Shown here: positions 1 through 35,821 of the stretch, one piece after another | Layout of the letters: each line of letters begins with the position of its first letter | How positions within the stretch are numbered: the stretch's first letter is position 1 | From: Fistulifera solaris | Taxonomy: Eukaryota | Assembly (NCBI GenBank): GCA_030295235.1 | Contig: AP026137.1 | Coordinates: 806,001 to 870,000 of the forward strand | Direction: 5' to 3' | Length of the DNA: 64,000 nt | Position numbers and translations under genes: made by a program | The notes under the pieces: generated by a model | The model's input: only the letters and a program-made list of their open reading frames with translations | The model's database searches: none | Told to the model about the DNA's origin: nothing

Positions 1-593
1 CCAGCAGAACAAACGGAGCTTAGGTAGCAGTGGAACTCGGACCAATCCTGATTCATGACTGAAAAGCAGTCGTGGTTAACATCATTCGTTACGAGTTACG
101 AGGGGGATCGCTGCAATCTATTTACTCCTATTACTCAGTCTTAGCAACCAGCAAACTAAATAGAATTTTTTTTGAAAACATCCAATCTATTATTGCTAAA
201 AATGGATAGAACGCAGATCCCAGAATCAAAAGGAGCACAACTCTTGCACGAGGAGCTAGAAGAAAGAACACTGTCTCACTGCACCAAGCCACCGAGCTAC
301 GAGTGATTCAACACATGAATCACACCCGCAGACGGCACATCTGGCGTCTTAACGAGAGACATGGGGCCCTACCTTCATCGCAGCGCGAGAGTTGGCTTGC
401 CACGCCTGGCCAATTGATTTGGGTTTAAAAGAGAGAAAACAAAATAGATTTGGACTTGAGAGTGAACGTACCTTGTCACGGTCCCTGCCAGATACTCTGC
501 CGTCGAGTTCAAAGCAAACCGGGATTCCAGCACCTCCTCGTGACATTCTCTCATCCTCACCTTTTCTGTCCCTAAGATCAATAAATTATTACA

Positions 594-3500
594 CTACTTG
601 GGATATCGAACATTCTCCTTGCACAGTCGAGCCAAGTACGGGGCGCGCGGAAGCAAACATTCTCCTTGCACTTCCGCTCCAGAAAGGGACGGGTGCGGAG
701 GCAAGGACCAAGTGTTTTCTTTCGCTTTCGCATCGCATCCACCTCCATTGAATCCACATCGCAAAAGTGTGGAATGGTATCCACGTCCATTCCACTCGTG
801 ATATCAAATCTCGGCATGGTATCCATCTCCGTTTCACTCAAAAAAATCCAATGTCGACATTGCAGAATCCTCCTCTACAAAAGGATCAAGACACAATCGA
901 TGACGCTTCGAACTCCTCACCGGAGAAGAGGAAGAAACAACATCAGCTTCCAATGCGCGCTTACGCGTCTCACGACCAAGATCCACCACCACGACGACAG
1001 GATCAAGACACAATCGACGACGCTTCCAATTCGTCACCGGAGAAGAGGTAGAATCAACATCATCTTTCAAAGCGCGCTTACGCGTCCCGCGAACAAGATC
1101 CACCACCACGACGACAGGATCAAGACACAATCGACGACGCTTCCAATTCGTCACCGGAGAAGAGGTAGAATCAACATCATCTTCCAAAGCGCGCTTACGC
1201 GTCCCACAGCCAAGATCCACCACCACGACGACAGGATCAAGACACAATCGACGTCGCTTCGAACTCCTCACCGGAGAAGAGGAAGAAACAACATCATCTT
1301 CCAATGCGCGCTTACGCATCCCGCGAACAAGATCCACCACCACGACGACAGGATCACGACACGATCGACGACGCTTCGAACTCCTCACCGGAGAAGAGGA
1401 AGAAATAACATCATCTCCCAAAGCGCTTACGCCGTCCCACAGCCAAGATCCACCACCACGACGACAGGATCAAGACACAATCGACGTCGCTTCGAACTCC
1501 TCACCGGAGAAGAGGAAGAAACAACATCATCTCCCAAAGCGCGCTTACGATTCCAACGAGACGGATCATCCAAACCAGCCATCTCATCTATCTCCATAGG
1601 AACCGGATCATCCAAACCAGCCATCTCATCTATCTCCATAGGAACCGGATCATCCAAACCAGCCATCTCATCGATCTCCATAGGAACCTCCATAGGATCA
1701 TCCAAGCTAGCCATCTCATCGATCTCCATAAAAACCGGATCATCCAAACCAGCCATCTCATCGATCTCCATAGGAACCGGATCATCCAAACCAGCCATCT
1801 CATCGATCTCCATAGGAACCTTCATAGGATCATTCAAACCAGCCATCTCATCGATCTCCATAGGAACCGGATCATACAAACCAACCATCTCATCGATCTC
1901 CATAGGAACCTCCATAGGATCATACAAACCAGCCATCTCATCGATCTCCATAGGAACCTCCATAGGATCATACAAACCAGCCATCTCATCGATCTCCATA
2001 GGAACCTCCATAGGATCATTCAAACCAGCCATCTCATCGATCTCCATAGGAACCTCGATAGGATCATACAAACCAGCCATCTCATCGATCTCCATAGGAA
2101 CCGGATCATCCAAACCAGCCATCTCATCGATCTCCATAGGAACCTCCATAGGATCATTCAAACCAGCCGCCTCATCGATCTCCATAGGAACCTCCATAGG
2201 ATCATACAAACCAGCCATCTCATCGATCTCCATAGGAACCTCCATAGGATCATACAAACCAGCCATCTCATCGATCTCCATAGGAACCTCCATAGGATCA
2301 TACAAACCAGCCATCTCATCGATCTCCATCAAAATCAGATCATCCAAACCAGCCATCTCATCGATCTCCATAAAAATCAGATCATCCAAACCAGCCATCT
2401 CATCGATCTCCATAGGAACCTCGATAGGATCATACAAACCAGCCATCTCATCGATCTCCATAGGAACCGGATCATACAAACCAGCCATCTCATCGATCTC
2501 CATAGGAACCGGATCATCCAAACCAGCCATCTCATCGATCTCCATAGGAACAGGATCATACAAACCAGCCATCTCATCGATCTCCATAGGAACAGGATCA
2601 TACAAACCAGCCATCTCATCGATCTCCATGGGAGCAGGATCACGAGCAAGATCCGCAAAGTACTCGCGAACACTTCGTTGCCCGATCCGTTCGATGAAAC
2701 GACACGACACCAATTTATCATCGGGCGCAAAATGAACTCGACGACGATCACCACTTTTCTTTACAATACGCTCCGCAAACAATTTCGTTTTCAATGATTC
2801 TAGAGCCGTCGGCTCAATCGACTCCACAACCGGTATCGTCTTCACTGGAGCAGAAGGCAATGTCCCGACTGCAACGGAATCCTCCACAGCCGGTTGCTGA
2901 ACACAGCAACGACGATGAGCAAGACCCGAAAAGTATTCGCGAACACTTTGTTGCCCGATCCGTTCGATGAAACGACACGACACCAAATTTTCATCGGGGG
3001 CAAAACGAACGCGAAGAAGACCGCTTTCCTTCAACAAACATCGGAAATGTGCGTTCCAAACAGCACGCTTGTTTGAGAATTCACACAAAAGACGAAGGGG
3101 ATCGAGACCAATAGAGCTGCATGTCTCGAAATTCCCCAATCGCACGATATGAATTGCTTTTGTTGCTGCGGACGACCCACGAAGCTCAGCCAACAACAAA
3201 AACAAGCCAACTGCGGAAGCACCGATCCATCTGGCACCTCCACAAGCAGTAACAACTCCAATCACCATAAGAAAGAGAATGAAGACGAAAGACACGCAAA
3301 AATGACACGGTGCTTTCGCTTCAAATCAAATTGCTTCTCCGTAGCGTCAAGTACCGGAGCTACAGGACGAAACATCGTGAGAGGTAGAGTCTCCAAACGA
3401 ACTGGAAACTCCGTGTTCTTTGCCAAGAGAACATCGTCACGATGCGTACAACCGTTTGCGTGAAAAGAACGAAGCAAACAGCCGCACGACGACCAAACGA

Positions 3501-3848
3501 CAGCCACATGGTCGAGCAAAAACTCTTCAGCGCCAGAAGAGCGATTTCTGCGACGGTCCGAGCGCAGAAACGCATCAACACAAGCCCCGCAACGCAAGCA
3601 GGCACAAGGATGATGCAAAGAACGGAAAAGAGCGACAGAACAAGCAAACAGACGCAGGAGAAAACACACACCGACTCCGAAAGCGACTGAACACTTGCGA
3701 TGCCGCGCAGCATACTTCCAATCTCCAGAGCAAACTGAATCTCCGCCGGAGCGAAGAAACAGCCAATCCGGCCGACAGGAGACGAAAGGATGCAAGTAAA
3801 GAGCACGAAGCTCGCGAAAGTTTTGTTTGTTTTGATAAAGTTTATCAT
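594..3848 (-). CDS. Orphan repeat protein copy 1: hydrophobic N-terminus, 2x RVxF module, 24 MEID repeats, ~6 39-aa basic repeats; broken by frameshifts as assembled
   Basis: ORF pieces 3360-3848 (ATG MINFIKTNK...), 1427-3295, 834-1421 and a C-terminus ending ...CKENVRYPK* at 594. The link between the N-terminal piece and the main ORF (TAG at 3360-3362) is unresolved. Confidence 0.6.
883..1548 (-). repeat. 117-bp coding minisatellite (39 aa, RKRALEDDVVSSSSPVRSSKRRRLCLDPVVVVVDLGCGT)
   Basis: ggatca anchors at 883, 1000, 1117, 1234, 1351 and 1467. Equivalent arrays at ~8524-9540 (~8.7 units), ~16571-17237, ~23641-24424 (~6.7 units) and ~31094-31760. Confidence 0.95.
1563..2640 (-). repeat. 42/48-bp coding minisatellite (MEIDEMAGLDDPVP / MEIDEMAGLYDPMEVP)
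   Basis: Period 42 (ggatcatcc at 1563 and 1605) mixed with 48-bp variants. Units counted from the ORF translations: 24, 26, 12, 17 and 14 in copies 1-5. Confidence 0.97.
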
Positions 3849-3913
3849 TTTGTTGCAAGACCTTGTTTCAAAAGAAAAAAGTGGGCAACCGAGAAGGCGA
3901 GGGAGGCCAGCTG

Positions 3914-3970
3914 CGGACCGCGGTACATGTTGTACGGACCGCGGTACATGTTGTACGGACCGCGGTACAT
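3914..3970. repeat. 21-bp tandem repeat (cggaccgcggtacatgttgta) in the divergent intergenic region
   Basis: Starts at 3914, 3935 and 3956. Three copies in units 1, 4 and 5; one copy in units 2 and 3. Confidence 0.9.
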
Positions 3971-4383
3971 TTTCTACGTAACCTTCACGGCTACTATTTG
4001 AAAGAGAAAGTATATTCGATGCGACATGATACTCTATTCGGACAATGTACGCTGCATACATCCAGTATATCAACGTACGGGTACCGTACCGGATGGATGG
4101 ACTTTGCTGTGTCCTCGTTTTTCCGTGCTTTTTTAAAAAGTCTTGTTGTAATCATTACCAACCAGGTCTTGCTTATTGCTTCGCTATGGAAAGAAAGATT
4201 GTCGATCAACTGCCACTCGACAATAATGATAGCAAACAAACGAATTCTTTTCTCGTCACTTCGACGCGGAGCAAAGGATCGACGGAGATTAGGAATCACC
4301 TTTTTTCGAGATAGATCCCATGTGAGCTCGCAACTCGCCACATCATCGCTTGCAGCACGAAATCCTTCCTTTTCGTTAGTTCA

Positions 4384-5790
4384 ATGCAGTCAAACGTAGG
4401 CTCGATATCAAACAAGTACACTTCCTTTCGGATCCGTAATCTACGGTACAAGAGTGATCAATCTGATCCTGCAAGGAAAACAACAAGAAATGAAGAAACA
4501 CCCGTTATAGCACCGGGATCGAAGCCTCACTCCGCCATCGCGGCTCAATTGGAAGAGCGACTCAAACGAGTTGTTAGCGATCTAAATTTGAGCGATCAGC
4601 TTTCGGTAATAGGCATTGCTGTCCTTACGGCTCTCATTTTGACGGCTCCTTATGTTATTCGGCAAATGAAGAAATCAGGTCGAGAAGATTATTCGGTCAC
4701 GTCGGAAGATCCGGTGGATGATTTGACCATGGTTGTGAGACGTGCGTGGGACGAGGAAGACGAAGATGAGTCATCTCGAAAAAGCGCTGTTGAAATAATG
4801 CTTAAGGATATTTTGAAATCGCAAGGACTGCAGTAAGCAGCACAGGATTTTCTCATTCGCATTTTGGAAGCGCCCGAGTTCCAGGCGGCGCTGCAACGTT
4901 TGGTAAAAAACGATTTGGGCGGACTTAATTTCGGATAAGGAAACTGTGGCACAAGTGATTCGACTGCTGCAAATAGCCATTCAAGATCCGGCTGTGAAGA
5001 AAGCGGCTCAACTTCTTGTGCTTCAAATTGTTCAAGATCAGCAAGTCAAAGAGTCGCTCATTGAGCTCATCAAAAGTTTGGGTGCCGAAAAGGCTGTTCT
5101 GGGTGCTACTCAGACTCTTCTAACAGAGGCCGCGCATAATGCTTTGAATGATGCGGAAATATTAGACCATTCGATGGAATTCGCGACGGACGTGGTGGGA
5201 GACGATGTCGTCCAACGAACGGCCGGTGAGGCTTTGCGCAAATCAGTGGGACACGCTTTTAGACCTGCGTCCACGGTTTTGTTGACAGCGGCAGGTATTG
5301 GTTTGATGGTATTCGGTGTGGCTACAATTGGCTATGCCAGATCGTCCGACCAAGAAATAGTTTTGTTGGAAACAGCTGCTCGATCACTACAAAGCAATGC
5401 CTCTTATGGGATTATGAGGATCGTCACTTGGCCTTTTCGTGCAGTGCAGGGTATCTGGAGCGATACAGAAATTTTATTGTGGAAACCTGTATGTTGGCTT
5501 CAAGATAGTGCCGCTATAATTTCGGAGCAAGCATTATCATTGATTTCAGACTCGTTCGACTACGTGTCGAGTCTACCAAGTCGGGGAAGTGTGGCGGTGA
5601 TGCAAGCCTTGTCGCAAGCTGGACAGGCCACTGCTGATGCCGTTGTTACTTTTGTTGATCGATTGTTTCAAAAGATCGCCTCCTTGGCGTGTTTATACAA
5701 AGATGAATTGGTCGCAGCCATCACTCAGTACTTAAGGGCAGCTGTTGATTTCGTAGTGGAGTTCGCTCAATCCAATGGCCAGGTCGCGAT
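4384..5790 (+). pseudogene. Truncated nonsense copy 1 of the 515-aa helical membrane protein gene
   Basis: Matches 34146-35551 but has CAA>TAA at 4834-4836, and the amplification junction at 5790 removes the 3' end. Confidence 0.9.
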
Positions 5791-5993
5791 TCTATGGATG
5801 TTATTTAAGTGCTCAATTGATGCTATAGCGATGTTTTGGTTGCAGTCGCCAGGTACGCCTGTTTTCTTGTTAGCTTCAGCTGGTACATTTTGCTACGTCA
5901 CTCTGCACGCCCACTTCTTTTATCTCCATCGCCGTGCATCGTACTCGATGCCATTGCAATTGCAAGTTCTGCATTCCTTTTATCGTTATCGTA

Positions 5994-7148
5994 ATGCTCT
6001 TTTTCCTTCTTCTAGCAGAAAAGGGTGACAACGCACGGTCGCACGGTGGACACAGTGTGTGGTCAGTGTCGGATTTCTTTCCTGTTGATGCCGATGCCGA
6101 TGCCCTATCGACGCATCATCAAAGACTATCCGTGTCTGCCAAACAAAGGTTACATACTCGCCAATCTCATCTTTTTTTCGGCGGCGGTGGCGGCGGTAGG
6201 ATCGGATAAAGTCGATGTGTCATCATCAGTCGAGGAAAGCAGATGGGACCGCGTCCGAAGGGAAGGAGGCATGTTCTCCATACACACAAAACATACGGTG
6301 TTTTTGAATCCGTTTGGACTCTGGTACGGTGCGGTGGCTGTCACTCTCGGTATCCCGTGGTATATTGCCATGACAATCTGTCAAATCTTTTACAAGTTGA
6401 CCGGAGAACGTTTCGATTGACTACGATGCATTCCGATTTTTTATTACACAAATTTTTATTACACAAATTTGGGGGACATTGTTGTTCCGATTGACACATT
6501 GTTATCCCAAAATGGAAGGTTTGGATATTTTACGAAAATTCTATAAAGAGTGAGTATGTTGGCAATAACCGTGCTGGACATTCGCCTTCGCGGTTCGCAG
6601 GAGGAGTCTCATAATGTTTTTTCGACGTCACAGGGGTCGATGTGCCATGCTTGCGGCGAATCACAGCTCATGGATGGACACTTTCTATTTGGGTGCGACC
6701 GTCGGCTGGAGAAATTTTAGCCTCATTAGCAAAAATGAAGTGCAGCGCGTCCCTATTCTCGGTAAGGCCATCGAGGTTGGCGGCAATATTCTACCTGGTA
6801 GTAGATCGACAAGATCGCAAGTCGCAGCTCATGACGTTGAAAAAGGGAATTCAATACCAGTACTTACAAGACTTTGTACATTTGTGAAGGTATCCCGAGG
6901 GAACACGTGCGCATACAAGAAGAGTCGTGCCCTTTAAAAACGGAGCTTTCAAAATGGCGCACAAGGCTGGTGCACCGGTCATCATCCCCATTTCCATCGT
7001 AGGCGCCGATAAATCCATGGCAATTCACTGGATGTTCCCTTTCTGACCCGGTCACCCCCTATCACGCGTGGTCGTTCATAAACCGATTGAATCCGAAGGA
7101 AGGACGGAAGAGGAGCTGGCGGAGGCTGTTTCGCACTGCTATGAATAG
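5994..7148 (+). pseudogene. 1-acyl-sn-glycerol-3-phosphate acyltransferase (LPAAT/PlsC family, plastid type) pseudogene, copy 1
   Basis: Motifs NHSSWMD (NHxxxxD), PEGTR and PFKNGAFKMAHKAGAPVIIPISI. GT-AG intron 6550-6633. Transit-peptide-like N-terminus. In-frame TGA at 6418-6420 and ~7044, plus frameshifts and small duplications (FITQI x2, QYQY). Start position approximate. Confidence 0.85.
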
Positions 7149-7299
7149 CGGATTGGACGATTACCAAAAGCCACTTGACAAGTGAATCATTGTCCTTGAA
7201 AGTACCAGGTACCAGGTACCAGGTATGATCGGGCAAAAGTGAAATGAGGGATAGTTTCCGGGACTGAAAAGTTGAGTCGTTGGAGAAAAGTAGACAACC

Positions 7300-7720
7300 G
7301 GATTTTTGAAGTCGAAATTCGAGACATGGATTGCAATCGCTACTGCAAGCTGCAAGTAGTCGACTACTAATGAAAATGAAGTTAGCCTACCAAACTGTAC
7401 CCAAATGAACGGAGGTTAGTCTAGAGGTATAGCAGTCTGCGCCACTTTTCAATGATTCATGACTGATGACTGAAACGCAGTCGTGAAAAAGGTAGCGCAC
7501 ACCATTATGGGTCTCTATATAGAACAGATGAAAGACAATGATTTCGCAAGGAATTTCGACCTAAGCAATCGAGTTGTGAATTGCAAATGCTGCAAGGATC
7601 ATTGTATTAGCACGTCATAAAATACAAACATAGCTTACCAACCCAGCAGAACAAACGGAGCTTAGGTAGCAGTGGAACTCGGACCAATCCTGATTCATGA
7701 CTGAAAAGCAGTCGTGGTTA
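7300..7720 (+). repeat. Degenerate ~240-bp repeat units of the dispersed ~230-bp family (also ~15345-15765, ~22415-22835, ~29870-30290, 1-80)
   Basis: gattcatgactga...gcagtcgtg at ~7454 and ~7692. aagacaatgatttcgcaaggaatttcgac at ~7532 matches aagacaatgttttgcaaggctattcgac at ~63719. Confidence 0.7.
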
Positions 7721-8235
7721 ACATCATTCGTTACGAGTTACGAGGGGGATCGCTGCAATCTATTTACTCCTATTACTCAGTCTTAGCAACCAGCAAACTA
7801 AATAGAATTTTTTTTGAAAACATCCAATCTATTATTGCTAAAAATGGATAGAACGCAGATCCCAGAATCAAAAGGAGCACAACTCTTGCACGAGGAGCTA
7901 GAAGAAAGAACACTGTCTCACTGCACCAAGCCACCGAGCTACGAGTGATTCAACACATGAATCACACCCGCAGACGGCACATCTGGCGTCTTAACGAGAG
8001 ACATGGGGCCCTACCTTCATCGCAGCGCGAGAGTTGGCTTGCCACGCCTGGCCAATTGATTTGGGTTTAAAAGAGAGAAAACAAAATAGATTTGGACTTG
8101 AGAGTGAACGTACCTTGTCACGGTCCCTGCCAGATACTCTGCCGTCGAGTTCAAAGCAAACCGGGATTCCAGCACCTCCTCGTGACATTCTCTCATCCTC
8201 ACCTTTTCTGTCCCTAAGATCAATAAATTATTACA

Positions 8236-11200
8236 CTACTTGGGATATCGAACATTCTCCTTGCACAGTCGAGCCAAGTACGGGCGCGCGGAAGCAAACA
8301 TTCTCCTTGCACTTCCGCTCCAGAAAGGGACGGGTGCGGAGGCAAGGACCAAGTGTTTTCTTTCGCTTTCGCATCGCATCCACCTCCATTGAATCCACAT
8401 CGCAAAAGTGTGGAATGGTATCCACGTCCATTCCACTCGTGATATCAAATCTCGGCATGGTATCCATCTCCGTTTCACTCAAAAAAATCCAATGTCGACA
8501 TTGCAGAATCCTCCTCTACAAAAGGATCAAGACACAATCGATGACGCTTCGAACTCCTCACCGGAGAAGAGGAAGAAACAACATCAGCTTCCAATGCGCG
8601 CTTACGCGTCTCACGACCAAGATCCACCACCACGGCGACAGGATCAAGACACAATCGACGACGCTTCCAATTCGTCACCGGAGAAGAGGTAGAATCAACA
8701 TCATCTTTCAAAGCGCGCTTACGCGTCCCGCGAACAAGATCCACCACCACAACGACAGGATCAAGACACAATCGACGACGCTTCGAACTCCTCACCGGAG
8801 AAGAGGAAGAATCAACATCATCTTCCAAAGCGCGCTTACGCGTCCCACAGCCAAGATCCACCACCACGACGACAGGATCAAGACACAATCGACGTCGCTT
8901 CGAACTCCTCACCGGAGAAGAGGAAGAAACAACATCAGCTTCCAATGCGCGCTTACGCGTCTCACGACCAAGATCCACCACCACGACGACAGGATCAAGA
9001 CACAATCGACGACGCTTCCAATTCGTCACCGGAGAAGAGGTAGAATCAACATCATCTTTCAAAGCGCGCTTACGCGTCCCGCGAACAAGATCCACCACCA
9101 CAACGACAGGATCACGACACAATCGACGACGCTTCGAACTCCTCACCGGAGAAGAGGAAGAATCAACATCATCTTCCAAAGCGCGCTTACGCGTCCCACA
9201 GCCAAGATCCACCACCACGACGACAGGATCAAGACACAATCGACGTCGCTTCGAACTCCTCACCGGAGAAGAGGTAGAATCAACATCATCTTCCAAAGCG
9301 CGCTTACGCGTCCCACAGCCAAGATACACCACCACAACGACAGGATCACGACACAATCGACGACGCTTCGAACTCCTCACCGGAGAAGAGGAAGAAACAA
9401 CATCATCTTCCAATGCGCGCTTACGCGGCCCGCGAACAAGATCCACCACCACGACGACAGGATCACGACACAAAGGACGACGCTTCGAACTCCTCACCGG
9501 AGAAGAGGAAGAAACAACATCATCTTCCAATGCGCTTACGATTCCAACGAGACGGATCATCCAAACCAGCCATCTCATCTATCTCCATAGGAACCGGATC
9601 ATCCAAACCAGCCATCTCATCGATCTCCATAAAAACCGGATCATCCAAACCAGCCATCTCATCTATCTCCATAGGAACCGGATCATCCAAACCAGCCATC
9701 TCATCGATCTCCATAAAAACCGGATCATCCAAACCAGCCATCTCATCGATCTCCATAGGAACCTCCATAGGATCATCCAAGCTAGCCATCTCATCGATCT
9801 CCATAAAAACCGGATCATCCAAACCAGCCATCTCATCGATCTCCATAGGAACCGGATCATCCAAACCAGCCATCTCATCGATCTCCATAGGAACCTCCAT
9901 AGGATCATTCAAACCAGCCATCTCATCGATCTCCATAGGAACCGGATCATACAAACCAGCCATCTCATCGATCTCCATAGGAACCTCCATAGGATCATAC
10001 AAACCAGCCATCTCATCGATCTCCATAGGAACCTCCATAGGATCATACAAACCAGCCATCTCATCGATCTCCATAGGAACCTCCATAGGATCATACAAAC
10101 CAGCCATCTCATCGATCTCCATAGGAACCTCGATAGGATCATACAAACCAGCCATCTCATCGATCTCCATAGGAACCGGATCATCCAAACCAGCCATCTC
10201 ATCGATCTCCATAGGAACCTCCATAGGATCATTCAAACCAGCCGCCTCATCGATCTCCATAGGAACCTCCATAGGATCATACAAACCAGCCATCTCATCG
10301 ATCTCCATAGGAACCTCCATAGGATCATACAAACCAGCCATCTCATCGATCTCCATAGGAACCTCCATAGGATCATACAAACCAGCCATCTCATCGATCT
10401 CCATCAAAATCAGATCATCCAAACCAGCCATCTCATCGATCTCCATAAAAATCAGATCATCCAAACCAGCCATCTCATCGATCTCCATAGGAACCTCGAT
10501 AGGATCATACAAACCAGCCATCTCATCGATCTCCATAGGAACCGGATCATACAAACCAGCCATCTCATCGATCTCCATAGGAACCGGATCATCCAAACCA
10601 GCCATCTCATCGATCTCCATAGGAACAGGATCATACAAACCAGCCATCTCATCGATCTCCATAGGAACAGGATCATCCAAACCAGCCATCTCATCGATCT
10701 CCATAGGAGCAGGATCACGAGCAAGATCCGCAAAGTACTCGCGAACACTTCGTTGCCCGATCCGTTCGATGAAACGACACGACACCAATTTATCATCGGG
10801 CGCAAAATGAACTCGACGACGATCACCACTTTTCTTTACAATACGCTCCGCAAACAATTTCGTTTTCAATGATTCTAGAGCCGTCGGCTCAATCGACTCC
10901 ACAACCGGTATCGTCTTCACTGGAGCAGAAGGCAATGTCCCGACTGCAACGGAATCCTCCACAGCCGGTTGCTGAACACAGCAACGACGATGAGCAAGAC
11001 CCGAAAAGTATTCGCGAACACTTTGTTGCCCGATCCGTTCGATGAAACGACACGACACCAAATTTTCATCGGGGGCAAAACGAACGCGAAGAAGACCGCT
11101 TTCCTTCAACAAACATCGGAAATGTGCGTTCCAAACAGCACGCTTGTTTGAGAATTCACACAAAAGACGAAGGGGATCGAGACCAATAGAGCTGCATGTC

Positions 11201-11923
11201 TCGAAATTCCCCAATCGCACGATATGAATTGCTTTTGTTGCTGCGGACGACCCACGAAGCTCAGCCAACAACAAAAACAAGCCAACTGCGGAAGCACCGA
11301 TCCATCTGGCACCTCCACAAGCAGTAACAACTCCAATCACCATAAGAAAGAGAATGAAGACGAAAGACACGCAAAAATGACACGGTGCTTTCGCTTCAAA
11401 TCAAATTGCTTCTCCGTAGCGTCAAGTACCGGAGCTACAGGACGAAACATCGTGAGAGGTAGAGTCTCCAAACGAACTGGAAACTCCGTGTTCTTTGCCA
11501 AGAGAACATCGTCACGATGCGTACAACCGTTTGCGTGAAAAGAACGAAGCAAACAGCCGCACGACGACCAAACGACAGCCACATGGTCGAGCAAAAACTC
11601 TTCAGCGCCAGAAGAGCGATTTCTGCGACGGTCCGAGCGCAGAAACGCATCAACACAAGCCCCGCAACGCAAGCAGGCACAAGGATGATGCAAAGAACGG
11701 AAAAGAGCGACAGAACAAGCAAACAGACGCAGGAGAAAACACACACCGACTCCGAAAGCGACTGAACACTTGCGATGCCGCGCAGCATACTTCCAATCTC
11801 CAGAGCAAACTGAATCTCCGCCGGAGCGAAGAAACAGCCAATCCGGCCGACAGGAGACGAAAGGATGCAAGTAAAGAGCACGAAGCTCGCGAAAGTTTTG
11901 TTTGTTTTGATAAAGTTTATCAT
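8236..11923 (-). CDS. Orphan repeat protein copy 2 (26 MEID repeats, ~9 39-aa repeats); frameshifted as assembled
   Basis: ORFs 11435-11923, 9520-11370, 8475-9578 and a C-terminus to 8236. Confidence 0.6.
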
Positions 11924-12419
11924 TTTGTTGCAAGACCTTGTTTCCAAAAGAAAAAAGTGGGCAATATCGAGAAGGCGAGGGGGAGGCCAGCTGCGGACCG
12001 CGGTACATTTTCTACGTAACCTTCACGGCTACTATTTGAAAGAGAAAGTATATTCGATGCGACATGGTACTCTATTCGGACAATGTACGCTGCATACATC
12101 CAGTATATCAACGTACCGGTACCGGATGGACGTTGCTGTGTCCTCGTTTTTCCGTGCTTTTTTTTTTTTTTAAAAAGTCTTGTTGTAATCATTACCAACC
12201 AGGTCTTGCTTATTGCTTCGCTATGGAAAGAAAGATTGTCGATCAACTGCCACTCGACAATAATGATAGCAAACAAACGAATTCTTTTCTCGTCACTTCG
12301 ACGCGGAGCAAAGGATCGACGGAGATTAGGAATCACCTTTTTCGAGATAGATCCCATGTGAGCTCGCAACTCGCCACATCATCGCTTGCAGCACGAAATC
12401 CTTCCTTTTCGTTAGTTCA

Positions 12420-13825: not shown

Positions 13826-14028
13826 TCTATGGATGTTATTTAAGTGCTCAATTGATGCTATAGCGATGTTTTGGTTGCAGTCGCCAGGTACGCCTGTTTT
13901 CTTGTTAGCTTCAGCTGGTACATTTTGCTACGTCACTCTGCACGCCCACTTCTTTTATCTCCATCGCCGTGCATCGTACTCGATGCCATTGCAATTGCAA
14001 GTTCTGCATTCCTTTTATCGTTATCGTA

Positions 14029-26300: not shown

Positions 26301-26399
26301 AGCGAAGAAACAGCCAATCCGGCCGACAGGAGACGAAAGGATGCAAGTAAAGAGCACGAAGCTCGCGAAAGTTTTGTTTGTTTTGATAAAGTTTATCAT
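23350..26399 (-). CDS. Orphan repeat protein copy 4 (17 MEID-type repeats, ~7 39-aa repeats)
   Basis: ORFs 25911-26399, 24185-25846 and 23345-24121. This is the most diverged MEID array (IEIDE and MDIDE variants). Confidence 0.6.
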
Positions 26400-26949
26400 T
26401 TTGTTGCAAGACCTTGTTTCAAAAGAAAAAAGTGGGCAATATCGAGAAGGCGAGGGGGAGGCCAGCTGCGGACCGCGGTACATGTTGTACGGACCGCGGT
26501 ACATGTTGTACGGACCGCGGTACATTTTCTACGTAACCTTCACGGCTACTATTTGAAAGAGAAAGTATATTCGATGCGACATGATACTCTATTCGGACAA
26601 TGTACGCTGCATACATCCAGTATATCAACGTACGGGTACCGTACCGGATGGATGGACTTTGCTGTGTCCTCGTTTTTCCGTGCTTTTTTTTTTTTTATAA
26701 AAAAAAGTCTTGTTGTAATCATTACCAACCAGGTCTTGCTTATTGCTTCGCTATGGAAAGAAAGATTGTCGATCAACTGCCACTCGACAATAATGATAGC
26801 AAACAAACGAATTCTTTTCTCGTCACTTCGACGCGGAGCAAAGGATCGACGGAGATTAGGAATCACCTTTTTCGAGATAGATCCCATGTGAGCTCGCAAC
26901 TCGCCACATCATCGCTTGCAGCACGAAATCCTTCCTTTTCGTTAGTTCA

Positions 26950-28355
26950 ATGCAGTCAAACGTAGGCTCGATATCAAACAAGTACACTTCCTTTCGGATC
27001 CGTAATCTACGGTACAAGAGTGATCAATCTGATCCTGCAAGGAAAACAACAAGAAATGAAGAAACACCCGTTATAGCACCGGGATCGAAGCCTCACTCCG
27101 CCATCGCGGCTCAATTGGAAGAGCGACTCAAACGAGTTGTTAGCGATCTAAATTTGAGCGATCAGCTTTCGGTAATAGGCATTGCTGTCCTTACGGCTCT
27201 CATTTTGACGGCTCCTTATGTTATTCGGCAAATGAAGAAATCAGGTCGAGAAGATTATTCGGTCACGTCGGAAGATCCGGTGGATGATTTGACCATGGTT
27301 GTGAGACGTGCGTGGGACGAGGAAGACGAAGATGAGTCATCTCGAAAAAGCGCTGTTGAAATCATGCTTAAGGATATTTTGAAATCGCAAGGACTGCAGT
27401 AAGCAGCACAGGATTTTCTCATTCGCATTTTGGAAGCGCCCGAGTTCCAGGCGGCGCTGCAACGTTTGGTAAAAAACGATTTGGGCGGACTTAATTTCGG
27501 ATAAGGAAACTGTGGCACTAGTGATTCGACTGCTGCAAATAGCCATTCAAGATCCGGCTGTGAAGAAAGCGGCTCAACTTCTTGTGCTTCAAATTGTTCA
27601 AGATCAGCAAGTCAAAGAGTCGCTCATTGAGCTCATCAAAAGTTTGGGTGCCGAAAAGGCTGTTCTGGATGCTACTCAGACTCTTCTAACAGAGGCCGCG
27701 CATAATGCTTTGAATGATGCGGAAATATTAGACCATTCGATGGAATTCGCGACGGACATGGTGGGAGACGATGTCGTCCAACGAACGGCTGGTGAGGCTT
27801 TGCGCAAATCAGTGGGACACGCTTTTAGACCTGCGTCCACGGTTTTGTTGACAGCGGCAGGTATTGGTTTGATGGTATTCGGTGTGGCTACAATTGGCTA
27901 TGCCAGATCGTCCGACCAAGAAATAGTTTTGTTGGAAACAGCTGCTCGATCACTACAAAGCAATGCCTCTTATGGGATTATGAGGATCGTCACTTGGCCT
28001 TTTCGTGCAGTGCAGGGTATCTGGAGCGATACAGAAATTTATTGTGGAAACCTGTGTGTTGGCTTCAAGATAGTGCCGCTATAATTTCGGAGCAAGCATT
28101 ATCATTGATTTCAGACTCGTTCGACTACGTGTCGAGTCTACCAAGTCGGGGAAGTGTGGCGGTGATGCAAGCCTTGTCGCAAGCTGGACAGGCCACTGCT
28201 GATGCCGTTGTTACTTTTGTTGATCGATTGTTTCAAAAGATCGCCTCCTTGGCGTGTTTATACAAAGATGAATTGGTCGCAGCCATCACTCAGTACTTAA
28301 GGGCAGCTGTTGATTTCGTAGTGGAGTTCGCTCAATCCAATGGCCAGGTCGCGAT
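26950..28355 (+). pseudogene. Truncated nonsense copy 4 of the 515-aa protein gene
   Basis: TAA at 27400-27402, junction at 28355. Confidence 0.9.
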
Positions 28356-28558
28356 TCTATGGATGTTATTTAAGTGCTCAATTGATGCTATAGCGATGTT
28401 TTGGTTGCAGTCGCCAGGTACGCCTGTTTTCTTGTTAGCTTCAGCTGGTACATTTTGCTACGTCACTCTGCACGCCCACTTCTTTTATCTCCATCGCCGT
28501 GCATCGTACTCGATGCCATTGCAATTGCAAGTTCTGCATTCCTTTTATCGTTATCGTA

Positions 28559-29724
28559 ATGCTCTTTTTCCTTCTTCTAGCAGAAAAGGGTGACACGCAC
28601 GGTCTCACGGTGGACACAGTGTGTGGTCAGTGTCGGATTTCTTTCCTGTTGATGCTGATGCCGATGCCGATGCCGATGCCCTATCGACGCATCATCAAAG
28701 ACTATCCGTGTCTGCCAAACAAAGGTTACATACTCGCCAATCTCATCTTTTTTCGGCGGCGGTGGCGGCGGTAGGATCGGATAAAGTCGATGTGTCATCA
28801 TCAGTCGAGGAAAGCAGATGGGACCGCGTCCGAAGGGAAGGAGGCATGTTCTCCATACACACAAAACATACGGTGTTTTTGAATCCGTTTGGACTCTGGT
28901 ACGGTGCGGTGGCTGTCACTCTCGGTATCCCGTGGTATATTGCCATGACAATCTGTCAAATTTTTTACAAGTTGACCGGAGAACGTTTCGATTGACTACG
29001 ATGCATTCCGATTTTTTTATTACACAAATTTTTATTACACAAATTTGGGGGACATTGTTGTTCCGATTGACACATTGTTATCGCAAAATGGAAGGTTTGG
29101 ATATTTTGCGAAAATTCTATAAAGAGCGAGTATGTTGGCAATAACCGTGCTGGACATTCGCCTTCGCAGTTCGCAGGAGGAGTCTCATAATGTTTTTTCG
29201 ACGTCACAGGGGTCGATGTGCCATGCTTGCGGCGAATCACAGCTCATGGATGGACACTTTCTATTTGGGTGCGACCGTCGGCTGGAGAAATTTTAGCCTC
29301 ATTAGCAAAAATGAAGTGCAGCGCGTCCCTATTCTCGGTAAGGCCATCGAGGTTGGCGGCAATATTCTACCTGGTAGTAGATCGACAAGATCGCAAGTCG
29401 CAGCTCATGACGTTGAAAAAGGGAATTCAATACCAGTACTTACAAGACTTTGTACATTTGTGAAGGTATCCCGAGGGAACACGTGCGCATACAAGAAGAG
29501 TCGTGCCCTTTAAAAACGGAGCTTTCAAAATGGCGCACAAGGCTGGTGCACCGGTCATCATCCCCATTTCCATCGTAGGCGCCGATAAATCCATGGCAAT
29601 TCACTGGATGTTCCCTTTCCGACCCGGTCACCCCCTATCACGCGTGGTCGTTCATAAACCGATTGAATCCGAAGGAAGGACGGAAGAGGAGCTGGCGGAG
29701 GCTGTTTCGCAGTGCTATGAATAG
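28559..29724 (+). pseudogene. LPAAT/PlsC pseudogene copy 4
   Basis: Same motifs. TGA after GERFD retained; intron donor changed GT>GC at 29126-29127. Confidence 0.85.
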
Positions 29725-30804
29725 CGGATTGGACGATTACCAAAAGCCACTTGACAAGTGAATCATTGTCCTTGAAAGTACCAGGTACCAGGTATGATCG
29801 GGCAAAAGTGAAATAAGGGATAGTTTCCGGGACTGAAAAGTTGAGTCGTTGGAGAAAAGTAGACAACCGGATTTTTGAAGTCGAAATTCGAAACATGGAT
29901 TGCAATCGCTACTGCAAGCTGCAAGTAGTTGACTACTAATGAAAATAAAGTTAGCCTACCAAACTGTACCCAAATGAACGGAGGTTAGTCTAGAGGTATA
30001 GCAGTCTGCGCCATTTTTCAATGATTCATGACTGATGACTGAAACGCAGTCGTGAAAAAGGTAGCGCACACCCTTATGGGTCTCTATATAGAACAGATGA
30101 AAGACAATGATTTCGCAAGGAATTTCGACGTAAGCAATCGAGTTGTGCATTGCAAATGCTGCAAGGATCATTGTATTAGCACGTCATAAAATACAAACAT
30201 AGCTTACCAACCCAGCAGAACAAACGGAGCTTAGGTAGCAGTGGAACTCGGACCAATCCTGATTCATGACTGAAAAGCAGTCGTGGTTAACATCATTCGT
30301 TACGAGTTACGAGGGGGATCGCTGCAATCTATTTACTCCTATTACTCAGTCTTAGCAACCAGCAAACTAAATAGAATTCTTTTTGAAAACATCCAGTCTA
30401 TTATTGCTAAAAATAGATAGAACGCAGATCCCAGAATCAAAAGGAGCACAACTCTTGCACGAGGAGCTAGAAGAAAGAACACTGTCTCACTGCACCAAGC
30501 CACCGAGCTACGAGTGATTCAACACATGAATCACACCCGCAGACGGCACATCTGGCGTCTTAACGAGAGACATGGGGCCCTACCTTCATCGCAGCGCGAG
30601 AGTTGGCTTGCCACGCCTGGCCAATTGATTTGGGTTTAAAAGAGAGAAAACAAAATAGATTTGGACTTGAGAGTGAACGTACCTTGTCACGGTCCCTGCC
30701 AGATACTCTGCCGTCGAGTTCAAAGCAAACCGGGATTCCAGCACCTCCTCGTGACATTCTCTCATCCTCACCTTTTCTGTCCCTTAGATCAATAAATTAT
30801 TACA

Positions 30805-33600
30805 CTACTTGGGATATCGAACATTCTCCTTGCACAGTCGAGCCAAGTACGGGCGCGCGCGGAAGCAAACATTCTCCTTGCACTTCCGCTCCAGAAAGGG
30901 ACGGGTGCGGAGGCAAGGACCAAGTGTTTTCTTTCGCTTTCGCATCGCATCCACCTCCATTGAATCCACATCGCAAAAGTGTGGAATGGTATCCACGTCC
31001 ATTCCACTCGTGATATCCAATCTCGGCATGGTATCCATCTCCGTTTCACTCAAAAAATCCAATGTCGACATTGCAGAATCCTCCTCTACAAAAGATCAAG
31101 ACACAATCGATGACGCTTCGAACTCCTCACCGGAGAAGAGGAAGAAACAACATCATCTCCCAAAGCGCGCTTACGCGTCCCACAGCCAAGATCCACCACC
31201 ACGACGACAGGATCAAGACACAATCGACGTCGCTTCGAACTCCTCACCGGAGAAGAGGTAGAATCAACATCATCTCCCAATGCGCGCTTACGCGGCCCGC
31301 GAACAAGATCCACCACCACGACGACAGGATCACGACACAATCGACGACGCTTCGAACTCCTCACCGGAGAAGAGGAAGAAACAACATCATCTTCCAATGC
31401 GCGCTTACGCGTCCCGCGAACAAGATCCACCACCACGACGACAGGATCACGACACAATCGACGACGCTTCAACCTCCTCACCTGAGAAGAGGAAGAAACA
31501 ACATCATCTCCCAAAGCGCGCTTACGCGTCCCACAGCCAAGATCCACCACCACGACGACAGGATCAAGACACAATCGACGACGCTTCGAACTCCTCACCG
31601 GAGAAGAGGAAGAAACAACATCATCTCCCAATGCGCGCTTACACGTCCCACAGCCAAGATCCACCACCACGACGACAGGATCAAGACACAATCGACGACG
31701 CTTCGAACTCCTCAACGGAGAAGAGGAAGAAACAACATCATCTCCCAAAGCGCGCTTACGATTCCAACGAGACGGATCATCCAAACCAGCCATCTCATCT
31801 ATCTCCATAGGAACCGGATCATCCAAACCAGCCATCTCATCAATCTCCATAGGAACCGGATCATTCAAACCAGCCATCTCATCGATCTCCATAGGAACCT
31901 CCATAGGATCATACAAACCAGCCCTCTCATCGATCTCCATAGGAACCGGATCATACAAGCCAGCCATCTCATCGATCTCCATAGGAACCTCAATAGGATC
32001 ATACAAACCAGCCATCTCATCGATCTCCATAAAAACCAGATCATCCAAACCAGCCATCTCATCGATCTCCATAGGAACCTCCATAGGATCATACAAACCA
32101 GCCATCTCATCGATCTCCATAGGAACCTCCATAGGATCATACAAACCAGCCATCTCATCGATCTCCATAAAAACCAGATCATCCAAACCAGCCATCTCAT
32201 CGATCTCCATAAAAACCGGATCATCCAAACCAGCCATCTCATCGATCTCCATAGGAACAGGATCATTAAAACCAGCCATCTCATCGATCTCCATAGGAAC
32301 CGGATCATCCAAACCAGCCATCTCATCGATCTCCATAAAAACCGGATCATCCAAACCAGCCATCTCATCGATCTCCATAGGAGCAGGATCACGAGCAAGA
32401 TCCGCAAAGTACTCGCGAACACTTCGTTGCCCGATCCGTTCGATGAAACGACACGACACCAATTTATCATCGGGCGCAAAATGAACTCGACGACGATCAT
32501 CACTTTTCTTTACAATACGCTCCGCAAACAATTTCGTTTTCAATGATTCTAGAGCCGTCGGCTCAATCGACTCCACAACCGGTATCGTCTTCACTGGAGC
32601 AGAAGGCACTGTCCCGACTACAACGGAATCCTCCACAGCCGGTTGCTGAACACAGCAACGACGATGAGCAAGACCCGAAAAGTATTCACGAACACTTTGT
32701 TGCCCGATCCGTTCGATGAAACGACACGACACCAAATTTTCATCGGGGGCAAAACGAACGCGAAGAAGACCGCTTTCCTTCAACAAACATCGGAAATGTG
32801 CGTTCCAAACAGCACGCTTGTTTGAGAATTCACACAAAAGACGAATGGGATCGAGACCAATAGAGCTGCATGTCTCGGAATTCCCCAATCGCACGATATG
32901 AATTGCTTTTGTTGCTGCGGACGACCCACGAAGCTCAGCCAACAACAAAAACAAGCCAACTGCGGAAGCACCGATCCATCTGGCACCTCCACAAGCACCA
33001 ACAGCTCCAATCACCATAAGAAAGAGAATGAAGACGAAAGACACGCAAAAAGTGACACGGTGCTTTCGCTTCAAATCAAATTAAGCTTCCCCGTAGCGTC
33101 AAGTACCGGAGCTACAGGACGAAACATCGTGAGACGTAGAGTCTCCAAACGAACTGGAAACTCCGTGTTCTTTGCCAAGAGAACATCGTCACGATGCGTA
33201 CAACCGTTTGCGTGAAAAGAACGAAGCAAACAGCCGCACGACGACCAAACGACAGCCACATGGTCGAGCAAAAACTCTTCAGCGCCAGAAGAGCGATTTC
33301 TGCGACGGTCCGAGCGCAGAAACGCATCAACACAAGCCCCGCAACGCAAGCAGGCACAAGGATGATGCAAAGAACGGAAAAGAGCGACAGAACAAGCAAA
33401 CAGACGCAGGAGAAAACACACACCGACTCCGAAAGCGACTGAACACTTGCGATGCCGCGCAGCATACTTCCAATCTCCAGAGCAAACTGAATCTCCGCCG
33501 GAGCGAAGAAACAGCCAATCCGGCCGACAGGAGACGAAAGGATGCAAGTAAAGAGCACGAAGCTCGCGAAAGTTTTGTTTGTTTTGATAAAGTTTATCAT
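30805..33600 (-). CDS. Orphan repeat protein copy 5 (14 MEID repeats, ~6 39-aa repeats)
   Basis: The 662-aa ORF 31086-33074 joins the hydrophobic segment, both RVxF modules, the MEID array and the 39-aa array in one frame. The C-terminus (30805-31071) follows a 1-bp shift in an A run. Confidence 0.65.
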
Positions 33601-34145
33601 TTTGTTGCAAGACCTTGTTTCAAAAGAAAAAAGTGGGCAATCGAGAAGGCGAGGGAGGCCAGCTGCGGACCGCGGTACATGTTGTACGGACCGCGGTACA
33701 TGTTGTACGGACCGCGGTACATTTTCTACGTAACCTTCACGGCTACTATTTGAAAGAGAAAGTATATTCGATGCGACATGATACTCTATTCGGACAATGT
33801 ACGCTGCATACATCCAGTATATCAACGTACGGGTACCGTACCGGATGGATGGACTTTGCTGTGTCCTCGTTTTTCCGTGCTTTTTTTTTTTTATAAAAAA
33901 AAGTCTTGTTGTAATCATTACCAACCAGGTCTTGCTTATTGCTTCGCTATGGAAAGAAAGATTGTCGATCAACTGCCACTCGACAATAATGATAGCAAAC
34001 AAACGAATTCTTTTCTCGTCACTTCGACGCGGAGCAAAGGATCGACGGAGATTAGGAATCACCTTTTTCGAGATAGATCCCATGTGAGCTCGCAACTCGC
34101 CACATCATCGCTTGCAGCACGAAATCCTTCCTTTTCGTTAGTTCA

Positions 34146-35693
34146 ATGCAGTCAAACGTAGGCTCGATATCAAACAAGTACACTTCCTTTCGGATCCGTA
34201 ATCTACGGTACAAGAGTGATCAATCTGATCCTGCAAGGAAAACAACAAGAAATGAAGAAACACCCGTTATAGCACCGGGATCGAAGCCTCACTCCGCCAT
34301 CGCGGCTCAATTGGAAGAGCGACTCAAACGAGTTGTTAGCGATCTAAATTTGAGCGATCAGCTTTCGGTAATAGGCATTGCTGTCCTTACGGCTCTCATT
34401 TTGACGGCTCCTTATGTTATTCGGCAAATGAAGAAATCAGGTCGAGAAGATTATTCGGTCACGTCGGAAGATCCGGTGGATGATTTGACCATGGTTGTGA
34501 GACGTGCGTGGGACGAGGAAGACGAAGATGAGTCATCTCGAAAAAGCGCTGTTGAAATAATGCTTAAGGATATTTTGAAATCGCAAGGACTGCAGCAAGC
34601 AGCACAGGATTTTCTCATTCGCATTTTGGAAGCGCCCGAGTTCCAGGCGGCGCTGCAACGTTTGGTGAAAACACTTTGGGCGGATTTAATATCGGATAAG
34701 GAAACTGTGGCACAAGTGATTCGACTGCTGCAAATAGCCATTCAAGATCCGGCTGTGAAGAAAGCGGCTCAACTTCTTGTGCTTCAAATTGTTCAAGATC
34801 AGCAAGTCAAAGAGTCGCTCATTGAGCTCATCAAAAGTTTGGGTGCCGAAAAGGCTGTTCTGGATGCTACTCAGACTCTTCTAACAGAGGCCGCGCATAA
34901 TGCTTTGAATGATGCGGAAATATTAGACCATTCGATGGAATTCGCGACGGACGTGGTGGGAGATGATGTCGTCCAACGAACGGCCGGTGAGGCTTTGCGC
35001 AAATCAGTGGGACACGCTTTTAGACCTGCGTCCACGGTTTTGTTGACAGCGGCAGGTATTGGTTTGATGGTATTCGGTGTGGCTACAATTGGCTATGCCA
35101 GATCGTCCGACCAAGAAATAGTTTTGTTGGAAACAGCTGCTCGATCACTACAAAGCAATGCCTCTTATGGGATTATGAGGATCGTCACTTGGCCTTTTCG
35201 TGCAGTGCAGGGTATCTGGAGCGATACAGAAATTTTATTGTGGAAACCTGTATGTTGGCTTCAAGATAGTGCCGCAACAATTTCGGAGCAAGCGTTATCA
35301 CTGGTTTCGGACTCGTTCGACTACGTGTTGAGTCTACCAAGTCGGGGAAGTGTGGCGGTGATGCAAGCCTTGTCGCAAGCTGGACAGGCCACTGCTGATG
35401 TCGTTGTTACTTTTGTTGATCGATTGTTTCAAAAGATCGCCTCCTTGGCGTGTTTATACAAAGATGAATTGGTCGCAGCCATCACTCAGTACTTAAGGGC
35501 AGCTGTTGATTTCGTAGTAGAGTTCGCTCAATCCAATGGCCAGGTCGCGATGGCATCAGCGACCTCTGTGTTCAACAGAGGGAAGACGTCTGTTCATATT
35601 GCTGATAAGGCTATCATCGATTACTACAACAGGCTGCTCGAACTTTTGGAAATCCTTCTGGAGCAGCTGCGTTCATCCATACGAATCGAGTAG
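34146..35693 (+). CDS. Hypothetical alpha-helical protein with two hydrophobic segments (intact parent of the truncated copies)
   Basis: 515-aa uninterrupted ORF; hydrophobic stretches LSVIGIAVLTALILTAPYVI and VLLTAAGIGLMVFGVATIGYA. An out-of-frame upstream ATG at 33989 (MIANKRILFSSLRRG...) resembles a mitochondrial presequence, so the real start may lie there. Confidence 0.8.
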   Translation: MQSNVGSISNKYTSFRIRNLRYKSDQSDPARKTTRNEETPVIAPGSKPHSAIAAQLEERLKRVVSDLNLSDQLSVIGIAVLTALILTAPYVIRQMKKSGREDYSVTSEDPVDDLTMVVRRAWDEEDEDESSRKSAVEIMLKDILKSQGLQQAAQDFLIRILEAPEFQAALQRLVKTLWADLISDKETVAQVIRLLQIAIQDPAVKKAAQLLVLQIVQDQQVKESLIELIKSLGAEKAVLDATQTLLTEAAHNALNDAEILDHSMEFATDVVGDDVVQRTAGEALRKSVGHAFRPASTVLLTAAGIGLMVFGVATIGYARSSDQEIVLLETAARSLQSNASYGIMRIVTWPFRAVQGIWSDTEILLWKPVCWLQDSAATISEQALSLVSDSFDYVLSLPSRGSVAVMQALSQAGQATADVVVTFVDRLFQKIASLACLYKDELVAAITQYLRAAVDFVVEFAQSNGQVAMASATSVFNRGKTSVHIADKAIIDYYNRLLELLEILLEQLRSSIRIE

Positions 35694-35821
35694 ATGTATC
35701 ATTGATCATTATTTATAATACTACGCAAAATAAAATGTATAGGATCTTGGAACTTAGTCGTCGCTGCTACCATCCTCAAAAGCAGAAGATACATATTTCG
35801 CCTGAGTTTTGTCGAACTTCT

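Follow-up and report, generated by a model that had tools for sequence, protein, structure and literature searches.

What does a tandem array amplify when most of the genes that it carries are broken? The question is posed by a locus of the diatom Fistulifera solaris, contained in a 64,000-nucleotide stretch of contig AP026137.1 (assembly GCA_030295235.1, positions 806,001 to 870,000 of the forward strand), which is referred to below as the window and in whose coordinates all positions are given. Positions 1–35551 of the window form a head-to-tail array. Its units carry a lysophosphatidic acid acyltransferase (LPAAT) sequence, a piece of a gene for a helical protein, and a gene with two kinds of coding repeat.

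The array itself has already been published and its existence is not new. A preprint of 2021 (bioRxiv 10.1101/2021.11.10.468027) describes five tandem LPAAT genes in F. solaris (fso:g9516a–e, 96 residues), copies a, b and e being identical and c and d being identical. The genes are placed on Chr 9_h with a bromodomain gene on one side and an aarF-kinase gene on the other, accompanied by fragments of a transmembrane (TM)-protein gene homologous to fso:g8025 and separated by 'highly repeated elements', which in the available part of the preprint have neither homology nor an assigned function. LPAAT is taken there as the relevant cargo and as a possible contributor to the oleaginous phenotype. 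The window array appears to be the same locus, on chromosome 9 of the Fso_h subgenome, to judge by the features that both have: five units, 96-residue open reading frames (ORFs) in two variants, TM fragments, repeats, and an ABC1/aarF kinase gene to the right of the array. The ORFs start at 6647, 14693, 21761 and 29223, and their residue 3 is A, V, V and A in units U1 to U4, which fits the identity groups of the preprint. No further paper treating the array was found in the literature on tandem LPAAT genes of F. solaris.

The two accounts differ in what the units are thought to carry. The preprint has a possibly active LPAAT cargo where we find an LPAAT relic, and repeat elements free of homology where we find coding sequence from the middle of a gene that has annotated paralogues in its family. 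The reading that we consider probable is that the published array consists of LPAAT relics and one mostly intact family gene per unit, without demonstrated selection on copy number.

Layout of the array and its LPAAT and helical-protein genes

The array (1–35551, no strand assigned) was delimited by self-BLAST, junction alignment and unit alignment. Self-BLAST divides it into five units of 7.1–8.0 kb that start at 1, 7643, 15689, 22757 and 30212 and end at 35551, and the long high-scoring segment pairs between units are 96.9–98.3% identical. Cut at the breakpoint, the units are U0 (1–5790, its left part cut off by the start of the window), U1 (5791–13825), U2 (13826–20893), U3 (20894–28355) and U4 (28356–35551). 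The duplication junction, ...GGTCGCGAT/TCTATGG..., lies at 5790/5791, 13825/13826, 20893/20894 and 28355/28356, and its sequence is identical across 160 bases in all four instances. After GGTCGCGAT at 35551, U4 enters unique sequence, so that the window holds five units and four junctions. The first-pass annotation of this DNA had spoken of at least five copies with one junction; the five units and the single junction type hold, and the junctions inside the window number four. The fifth LPAAT copy must sit immediately left of the window. Inside the array, no tRNA gene and no Rfam family was found.

Read data were available as contigs of four runs (X1 to X4), which were compared with the window over 32400–39990. 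The array junction is supported by two independent read sets, its continuation behind 35551 being present as a loose contig end of 185 letters in X1 and of 190 letters in X2. In the unit alignment, the relatedness of the units is mosaic along their length, the pattern by which exchange between units was recognized. Copies a and b of the repeat gene show 0 differences, as do copies c and e; the helical fragments b, c and d differ from one another at 1–2 sites, and the helical sequence of e differs at 17–21 sites, from these three at 20–21. The single junction type and the mosaic relatedness agree with the earlier proposal of one duplication followed by unequal crossing-over. One non-homologous duplication would have joined the middle of the helical-protein gene to a point ∼270 bases upstream of the LPAAT remnant; unequal crossing-over and gene conversion would then have expanded the array to five units and reshuffled these. 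Each unit carries an LPAAT that was dead beforehand, a helical 5′ fragment with a common TAA, and one complete family gene.

The lesions of the LPAAT copies were read against P0128, an F. solaris LPAAT of 333 residues; no other relative longer than the LPAAT ORF was found. In tblastn, P0128 matches all four window copies (6063–7182 on the plus strand in U1; 14145–15228, 21213–22296 and 28675–29758 in the other units) across nearly its whole length at ∼80% identity. TGA codons stand between GERFD and LRCIPIF and between VHL and RYPEGTR in all four copies, whereas the TGA between MFPF and PGHP is found in U1 and U2 only, with CGA in U3 and U4, and a stop between DI and RKFYKE is found in U2 and U3. 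A 7-base extra stretch directly after GGNIL shifts VDRQDRKSQ to another frame in all four. Small duplications occur as well, and each copy has 2–4 in-frame stops and several frame breaks relative to P0128; the interruption after YKE is an ordinary GTAAGT...AG intron. The stops are not explicable by indel errors, because homologous residues are in frame on both sides of them. Since lesions are common to all copies, the gene was already dead before the amplification. Judged by their coding sequence, the LPAAT copies in the array are relics, and the earlier remark that LPAAT carries stops in every unit holds for the four copies in the window.

The helical-protein gene is full-length at the array end only (34146–35693, plus strand, with CAA at 34596–34598), where it crosses 35551. 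Its product is 93% identical to FisN_10Lu097 of F. solaris. At E ≤ 0.001 it has 132 relatives, of which those with a name all come from diatoms. The four junction-bearing copies are 5′ fragments (4384–5790 on the plus strand with TAA at 4834–4836; 12420–13825 with TAA at 12870; 19489–20893 with TAA at 19939; 26950–28355 with TAA at 27400). All of them end 47 codons early, carry T at the position equivalent to the C at 34596 (CAA>TAA), and have 15 more differences from the terminal copy in common. The T is also present in the read contigs (85.8 of 85.8 depth in X1 and 22.2 of 33.2 in X2). The helical fragments are dead, whereas the gene at the terminal position is open and of full length; the truncation and the common CAA>TAA change had both been pointed out by the first-pass annotation.

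Some side observations concern these dead or duplicated genes. C>T changes account for several of the nonsense codons (CGA>TGA in LPAAT, CAA>TAA in the helical fragments; sites 6418, 7044, 15090, 4834 and their equivalents), which is compatible with deamination of methylated repeats. In a comparison with P0002, the helical protein (34077–35693) is near-identical to FisN_10Lu097 until about residue 380; the aligned part of 499 residues has 35 mismatches, some three quarters of them past that point. These late mismatches may reflect homoeologue gene conversion or a chimeric older gene model. Five clustered letters (34667, 34673, 34674, 34685 and 34691) are specific to the terminal copy in the window. 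All four runs carry the letters of copies a–d at 34667–34691, including the X3 and X4 contigs with an intact C at 34596, and the functional helical copy in those data therefore differs from copy e of the window at this place.

The repeat gene and its family

The third gene of the unit lies on the minus strand, divergent from the helical gene with ∼540 bases between the start codons, and measures ∼2.7–3.7 kb per unit. Its copies are located at 594–3848 (copy a), 8236–11923 (b), 16282–18990 (c), 23350–26399 (d) and 30805–33600 (e). From the N-terminus onwards it encodes a hydrophobic part, two RV[RH]F modules, MEIDEMAGL repeats, 39-residue repeats, and a C-terminal tail ending in ...CKENVRYPK. 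The frame that contains the RVxF and MEID motifs had been described as free of internal stops. It is indeed open in all five copies, with ORFs of 632, 626, 464, 563 and 664 residues, but these cover only the middle of a longer gene whose N-terminal part and, mostly, tail are in other frames in this assembly.

The first repeat, with a 42/48-base coding unit (MEIDEMAGL.DP..), was located by Tandem Repeats Finder (TRF) at 1562–2642 on the minus strand in copy a, and lies at 9553–10717, 17250–17784, 24438–25193 and 31773–32391 in the other copies. The second has a 117-base unit (39 residues, RKRALEDDVVSSSSPVRSSKRRRLCLDPVVVVVDLGCGT) and was placed at 882–1549, also on the minus strand of copy a, from TRF, unit spacing and homology to P0122; its other instances are at 8523–9535, 16572–17237, 23641–24424 and 31094–31760. 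Copies a to e contain 24, 26, 11, 14 and 13 MEIDE motifs and 6, 9, 5, 6 and 5 of the 39-residue units, respectively. Both repeat types are coding sequence because single-copy counterparts exist in FisN_5Hu265, an annotated F. solaris protein, where KRKRDLED...KRRKLCQDPVPVVD is followed by MELDEDKASLDDPV. The published description of repeat elements without homology is thereby corrected: they are coding repeats of a complete, lineage-specific family gene.

An exhaustive HMMER search with the non-repeat part of the gene returned five cluster representatives, from Fistulifera-like sequences only. Three of them are or contain the annotated F. solaris proteins FisN_5Hu265 (P0122), FisN_2HuN01 (P0127) and FisN_10Lu019 (P0124), and the other two are JGI records only; a match to the N-terminus adds FisN_7Lu031 (P0129) and FisN_15Lu056 (P0130). 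The paralogues start ∼190 residues before the window ORF, with MI..IKTNKTFASF... and several hydrophobic helices, and end in ...GPC.R.RP[YF]L.R.CK.NVRY.K. Both ends have their equivalents in the window. The family N-terminus is encoded there (3848–3465 in copy a), with 128 residues that are 88–91% identical to all four F. solaris proteins found, and the C-terminal motif is present in the tail. On the strength of this homology, the repeat gene is a member of a Fistulifera-specific family with at least five annotated paralogues, and the label of orphan gene given to it earlier has to be withdrawn, as these paralogues share its N-terminus, RVRF module and tail. With hydrophobic segments at about residues 14–33, 52–107 and 179–213, the family protein is predicted to be of the multi-pass membrane type with a hydrophobic N-terminus.

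The window gene and the F. solaris paralogues, all of them annotated as hypothetical proteins, are alike in the N-terminal 128 residues with their hydrophobic helices, in the RRVRF module and in the C.R.RP[YF]L.R.CK.NV motif; P0122 and P0127 in addition hold single-copy counterparts of the 39-residue unit together with MELD-type acidic units. Unlike the paralogues, the window gene has a second module, RVHF, its repeats are expanded to 11–26 and 5–9 units, and it is without the FFVDEKGER.HPAHW middle domain that four paralogues have. The family is otherwise marked by one or two RVRF...REYF modules, the acidic MEIDEMAGL repeat, the basic 39-residue repeat and the Cys/Arg-rich C-terminal motif. 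No Pfam family matched the window ORFs of the repeat gene at E ≤ 0.01, and none matched any of the five single-gene paralogues at E ≤ 0.05. A structure search by PDB profile gave chance-level rows only (E 0.08), and the Atlas gave no usable feature match (model predicted local distance difference test score, pLDDT, 0.38). An AlphaFold2 model of P0122 built from a 9-row alignment is unreliable, with a mean pLDDT of 41.8, and only the N-terminal helices appear in it. A metagenome scan with the RVxF region gave 194 pattern matches, 0 of them confirmed.

The motifs had also been taken as those of a cell-division protein. The kinetochore scaffold KNL1/Spc105 combines an RVSF motif with MELT repeats, and the window gene is like it in motif grammar, an RVxF-like site being followed by a number-variable M-E-[IL]-x array. 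The KNL1-like reading was rejected on the repeats themselves, in which position 4 is D in 82 of 82 units (14 or 16 residues) and not a phosphorylatable T. Membership in KNL1 was rejected as well, given the multi-helix hydrophobic N-terminus and relatives that are only Fistulifera-like. Neither a KNL1 RWD domain nor the Knl1/MELT Pfam model was matched by the window ORFs (E ≤ 0.01) or by the five paralogues (E ≤ 0.05), and the cell-division label was dropped.

A different likeness is offered by proteins that dock to protein phosphatase 1 (PP1), such as those of the PNUTS, NIPP1 and PPP1R15 types, in which RVxF is followed by a hydrophobic pair. The window gene has RVRF-APDEN-LV and RVHF-APDDK-LV, with LV 5 residues after the motif, and RRVRF is conserved across the family. 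In contrast to the PP1 regulators, what is found here is a short linear motif only, with no homology to any known PP1 regulator in the Pfam and PDB profile searches. The RVRF module thus resembles a PP1-docking site as a motif-level lead.

Further observations suggest that the family has duplicated elsewhere. P0127 (FisN_2HuN01, 1265 residues) contains the N-terminal region of the family twice, from residue 1 and from about residue 450, and resembles two adjacent family genes fused in one model, which would point to a tandem duplication of the family on another chromosome. At 33162–33669 the summed contig depth is 165–284 in X1 and 249–275 in X2, against ∼20 and ∼10 in the unique flank, and loose contig ends at 33217, 33622 and 33636 run into other sequence. 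More near-identical copies of the N-terminus and promoter of the family gene are probably present elsewhere in the genome. Runs X3 and X4, which are only guessed to be RNA, cover the helical and kinase genes and have depth 0 at 32654–33415, and this is no evidence on expression either way; a short X3/X4 piece at 33471–33622, with 6 mismatches, may come from a paralogue.

Frame breaks and the condition of the family gene

The alternative that survives best, although we regard it as unlikely, is that all of the cargo is dead, the family copies being truly frameshifted and the array a block of pseudogenes that drifts neutrally. Several observations weigh in its favour and against a mostly intact family gene. 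The gene is broken three to five times in every assembled copy: five times in a and in b, three times in c (with the 39-residue repeats and the tail in one frame), three times in d, whose 117-base array also holds a compensating −1/+1 pair, and three times in e, including a copy-specific 2-base insertion at 33083–33084. In each copy the first break falls on a T4 run (33214–33217 in e). The second coincides with a T4/T5 run in a–d and in e consists of the 2-base insertion and one extra T (T run at 33047–33051). Further breaks belong to an A6/A7 run (840, 8481 and equivalents), to a TT>T change and to (CG)n stretches, which lie in the 117-base units near 1420, 9530, 17180, 24140 and 24190 and, as GGG(CG)n, near 640, 8283 and 23391. 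Not all of these are in homopolymers: a and b have lost GC in (CG)n, d has gained a G in its tail, and the TT added to e looks real. The read contigs, in turn, speak to a part of the gene only: the compared interval takes in the 5′ half of copy e and no LPAAT copy, X1 (platform unspecified) is the only run that covers the first break at 33214, and at 36703 X2 alone has an extra base where X1 equals the window.

The breaks can be set beside those of genes in the flank of the same assembly, which the available part of the preprint describes as made with Canu and Nanopolish from R9.4 reads without short-read polishing (bioRxiv 10.1101/2021.11.10.468027). An essential DEAH-box splicing-helicase gene (42137–45883) is broken at GAAAC (∼44320, A3) and at AAATTTTTG (∼45205, T5), and has one true GTAAGT intron starting at 44084; its breaks are read as assembly indel errors and not as a broken gene. 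Comparison of the contigs of the four runs with the window gave 12 indel rows, all of which, except the 2-base row at 33083, lie in or beside runs of at least three identical bases. At 35850, 37891 and 37962, three runs from two studies are concordant against the window, and at 36126/36127 all four are. The ABC1/aarF-type kinase gene (36109–37945, minus strand; Pfam PF03109, E 4.6e-59), the right neighbour of the array, served as an indel control. Three read-supported indels lie inside it and each lengthens an ORF; with four such indels applied, the fourth (37962) being outside the coding sequence, the kinase ORFs grow from 422 and 203 to 505 and 295 residues. Assembly indel errors occur at roughly the density that the breaks would call for, with five places in 35850–37962 and two in the helicase gene. 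Because the helicase and kinase genes show homopolymer breaks too, such breaks in this nanopore-only assembly are not readable as pseudogenisation, which is also the practical lesson of the locus. Frame breaks in this window are weak evidence of pseudogenisation.

Within the family gene itself, the contigs remove the first break. The sole X1 contig there (33214) has an extra base (58.7 of 58.7 depth), and at 33083 the two additional bases of copy e are missing from the X1 contig (49.4 of 49.4). The second T run of this copy showed no indel. Application of the two X1-supported indels to copy e yields an 837-residue ORF from the family start MINFIKTNK. Of the continuous frame that would lead from MI..IKTNK into the tail, interrupted 3–5 times per copy as assembled, the contigs restore the first 837 residues, in copy-e-like sequence. 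The N-terminal segments A, B and C, read in their homologous frames, are free of nonsense substitutions in all five copies, and so is the tail in four of the five, whereas the LPAAT relic has 2–4 per copy; for the tail of copy a, a low-identity in-frame alignment shows 2 stops. The two N-terminal breaks are probably errors, the other homopolymer breaks of the family gene are suspected to be errors too, and at least most of the family-gene copies are probably intact. The first-pass annotation had called the repeat gene the only plausible live cargo. No other gene of the unit is complete, LPAAT being a relic and the helical gene truncated with a stop, but an open frame does not show that a gene is live.

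Substitutions among the copies speak less clearly, and on the short time scale they suit the reading in which all cargo is dead. In the 1164 non-repeat coding bases, copies a and b share one haplotype and c, d and e another; of the 11 sites that vary, 10 are nonsynonymous and 1 is synonymous. Over the N-terminal 384 bases the five copies do not differ at all. Divergence between units is equal in the C segment of the gene (0–9/651), in the LPAAT relic (5–13/∼1125) and in the spacer, that is, no lower in the gene than in the pseudogene parts. Among the 82 repeat units, minor codon types are synonymous in 4 cases and nonsynonymous in 19, with no synonymous excess. Nothing in these counts, whose power is low, points to purifying selection after the amplification, and this again counts against an intact gene. 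Over a longer time span the picture changes in part. An X2 contig from a wetland metagenome (32426–32768) has 12 differences from the window, 11 of them listed; in the RVRF...REYF module, 4 of 4 differences from this wild relative are synonymous, whereas 6 of 7 in the linker are nonsynonymous. The synonymy of the module and the absence of nonsense substitutions give some signal of constraint, which argues against a family gene that is dead throughout.

Selection, copy number and the LPAAT explanation

If most family-gene copies are intact, as in the reading that we favour, the question is whether selection has amplified them. The family gene is the only complete gene of the unit and therefore the sole candidate if the amplification has any function. 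The first-pass annotation had proposed that selection drives copy number, with genetic conflict (a driver or suppressor) as one possibility. In such a scenario the dosage and repeat diversity of a Fistulifera-specific membrane protein with a conserved, PP1-docking-like RVRF module and two readily expanding repeat arrays, changing in copy number and in repeat number, would be adaptive or conflict-driven, and the LPAAT explanation would be wrong here as well; we consider it decidedly doubtful. The wide variation in repeat number, kept in frame throughout (11–26 MEIDE motifs and 5–9 39-residue units), would suit it, and the 10:1 excess of nonsynonymous sites is compatible with diversifying selection. 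Neutrality, however, predicts ∼8.3 nonsynonymous to 2.7 synonymous sites, from which 10:1 on 11 sites is indistinguishable, and neutral unequal exchange predicts the same pattern. The proposed check by dN/dS accordingly lends the idea no support, and none was found for genetic conflict.

Copy number itself may differ between samples, as far as contig depth, which is not a measure of copy number and gives ratios of rough indication only, can suggest. In X1 the depth is 16.8–25 in the unique flank, 114.8 in the stretch invariant in all units (34986–35235), 98.9 at the junction-type end (35253–35551) and 25 at the terminal-type end. In X2 it is 7.7–14.1 in the unique flank and 28.5 in the array, with a T:C ratio of 22.2:11 at 34596. 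These depths would be in keeping with ∼5 units for X1 and ∼3 for X2, the wetland relative, a difference that selected amplification could claim for itself. Neutral expansion with ongoing change in copy number is the default reading.

The explanation offered with the published locus is LPAAT dosage, in which the 96-residue product keeps some acyltransferase function and aids the oil-rich phenotype. The preprint claims transcripts for this ORF, stating transcriptome support for its expression, and deems the product possibly active (bioRxiv 10.1101/2021.11.10.468027), a point that weighs against our account of LPAAT as a relic. The HX4D block NHSSWMD, followed by the VPILGKA stretch, is kept in all four 96-residue ORFs, and Pfam PF01553 (Acyltransferase) gives a partial match (E 1e-07, model positions 13–71 of 132). 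The homology is nevertheless confined to residues 1–47, which hold the HX4D block and VPILGKA; the other 49 residues are out of frame. In the LPAAT enzyme family, the EGTR block is required for activity. In all four copies, the YPEGTR block is behind the 7-base stretch and an in-frame TGA and is not in frame with HX4D, and the N-terminal membrane part is severed from HX4D by another in-frame TGA. We hold LPAAT dosage to be highly improbable. For work on this biofuel diatom this means a correction, in that the tandem 'LPAAT genes' offered as a possible cause of the oleaginous state are relics with 47 LPAAT-like residues left and with stops between the catalytic blocks.

Repeats are a known trap for long-read assemblers. 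That a single-copy locus was expanded by the assembler is nonetheless negligibly probable, as the junction is present in two contig sets, the units have many fixed differences and differing repeat numbers, and the preprint, in its available part, backs the five copies with 8 MinION reads spanning the whole array and with polymerase chain reaction (bioRxiv 10.1101/2021.11.10.468027), which together answer the check for an assembly artefact that the first-pass annotation had proposed.

Other features were noted in the right flank. A 235-base tandem repeat (39994–41737; 7.5 copies, 97% matches, 38% G+C) lies between a gene at 38699–39919 and the helicase gene. Farther to the right, a gene for tRNA-Ala (TGC) is present on the minus strand at 48102–48174. 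Two intergenic arrays, at 49565–50036 and 53467–53655 (68-base; 33/67/98-base periods), share the 13-mer T[TC]CTGGGAACGTG, which has 6 matches with at most one mismatch where 0.17 are expected and may be a regulatory or mobile-element motif.

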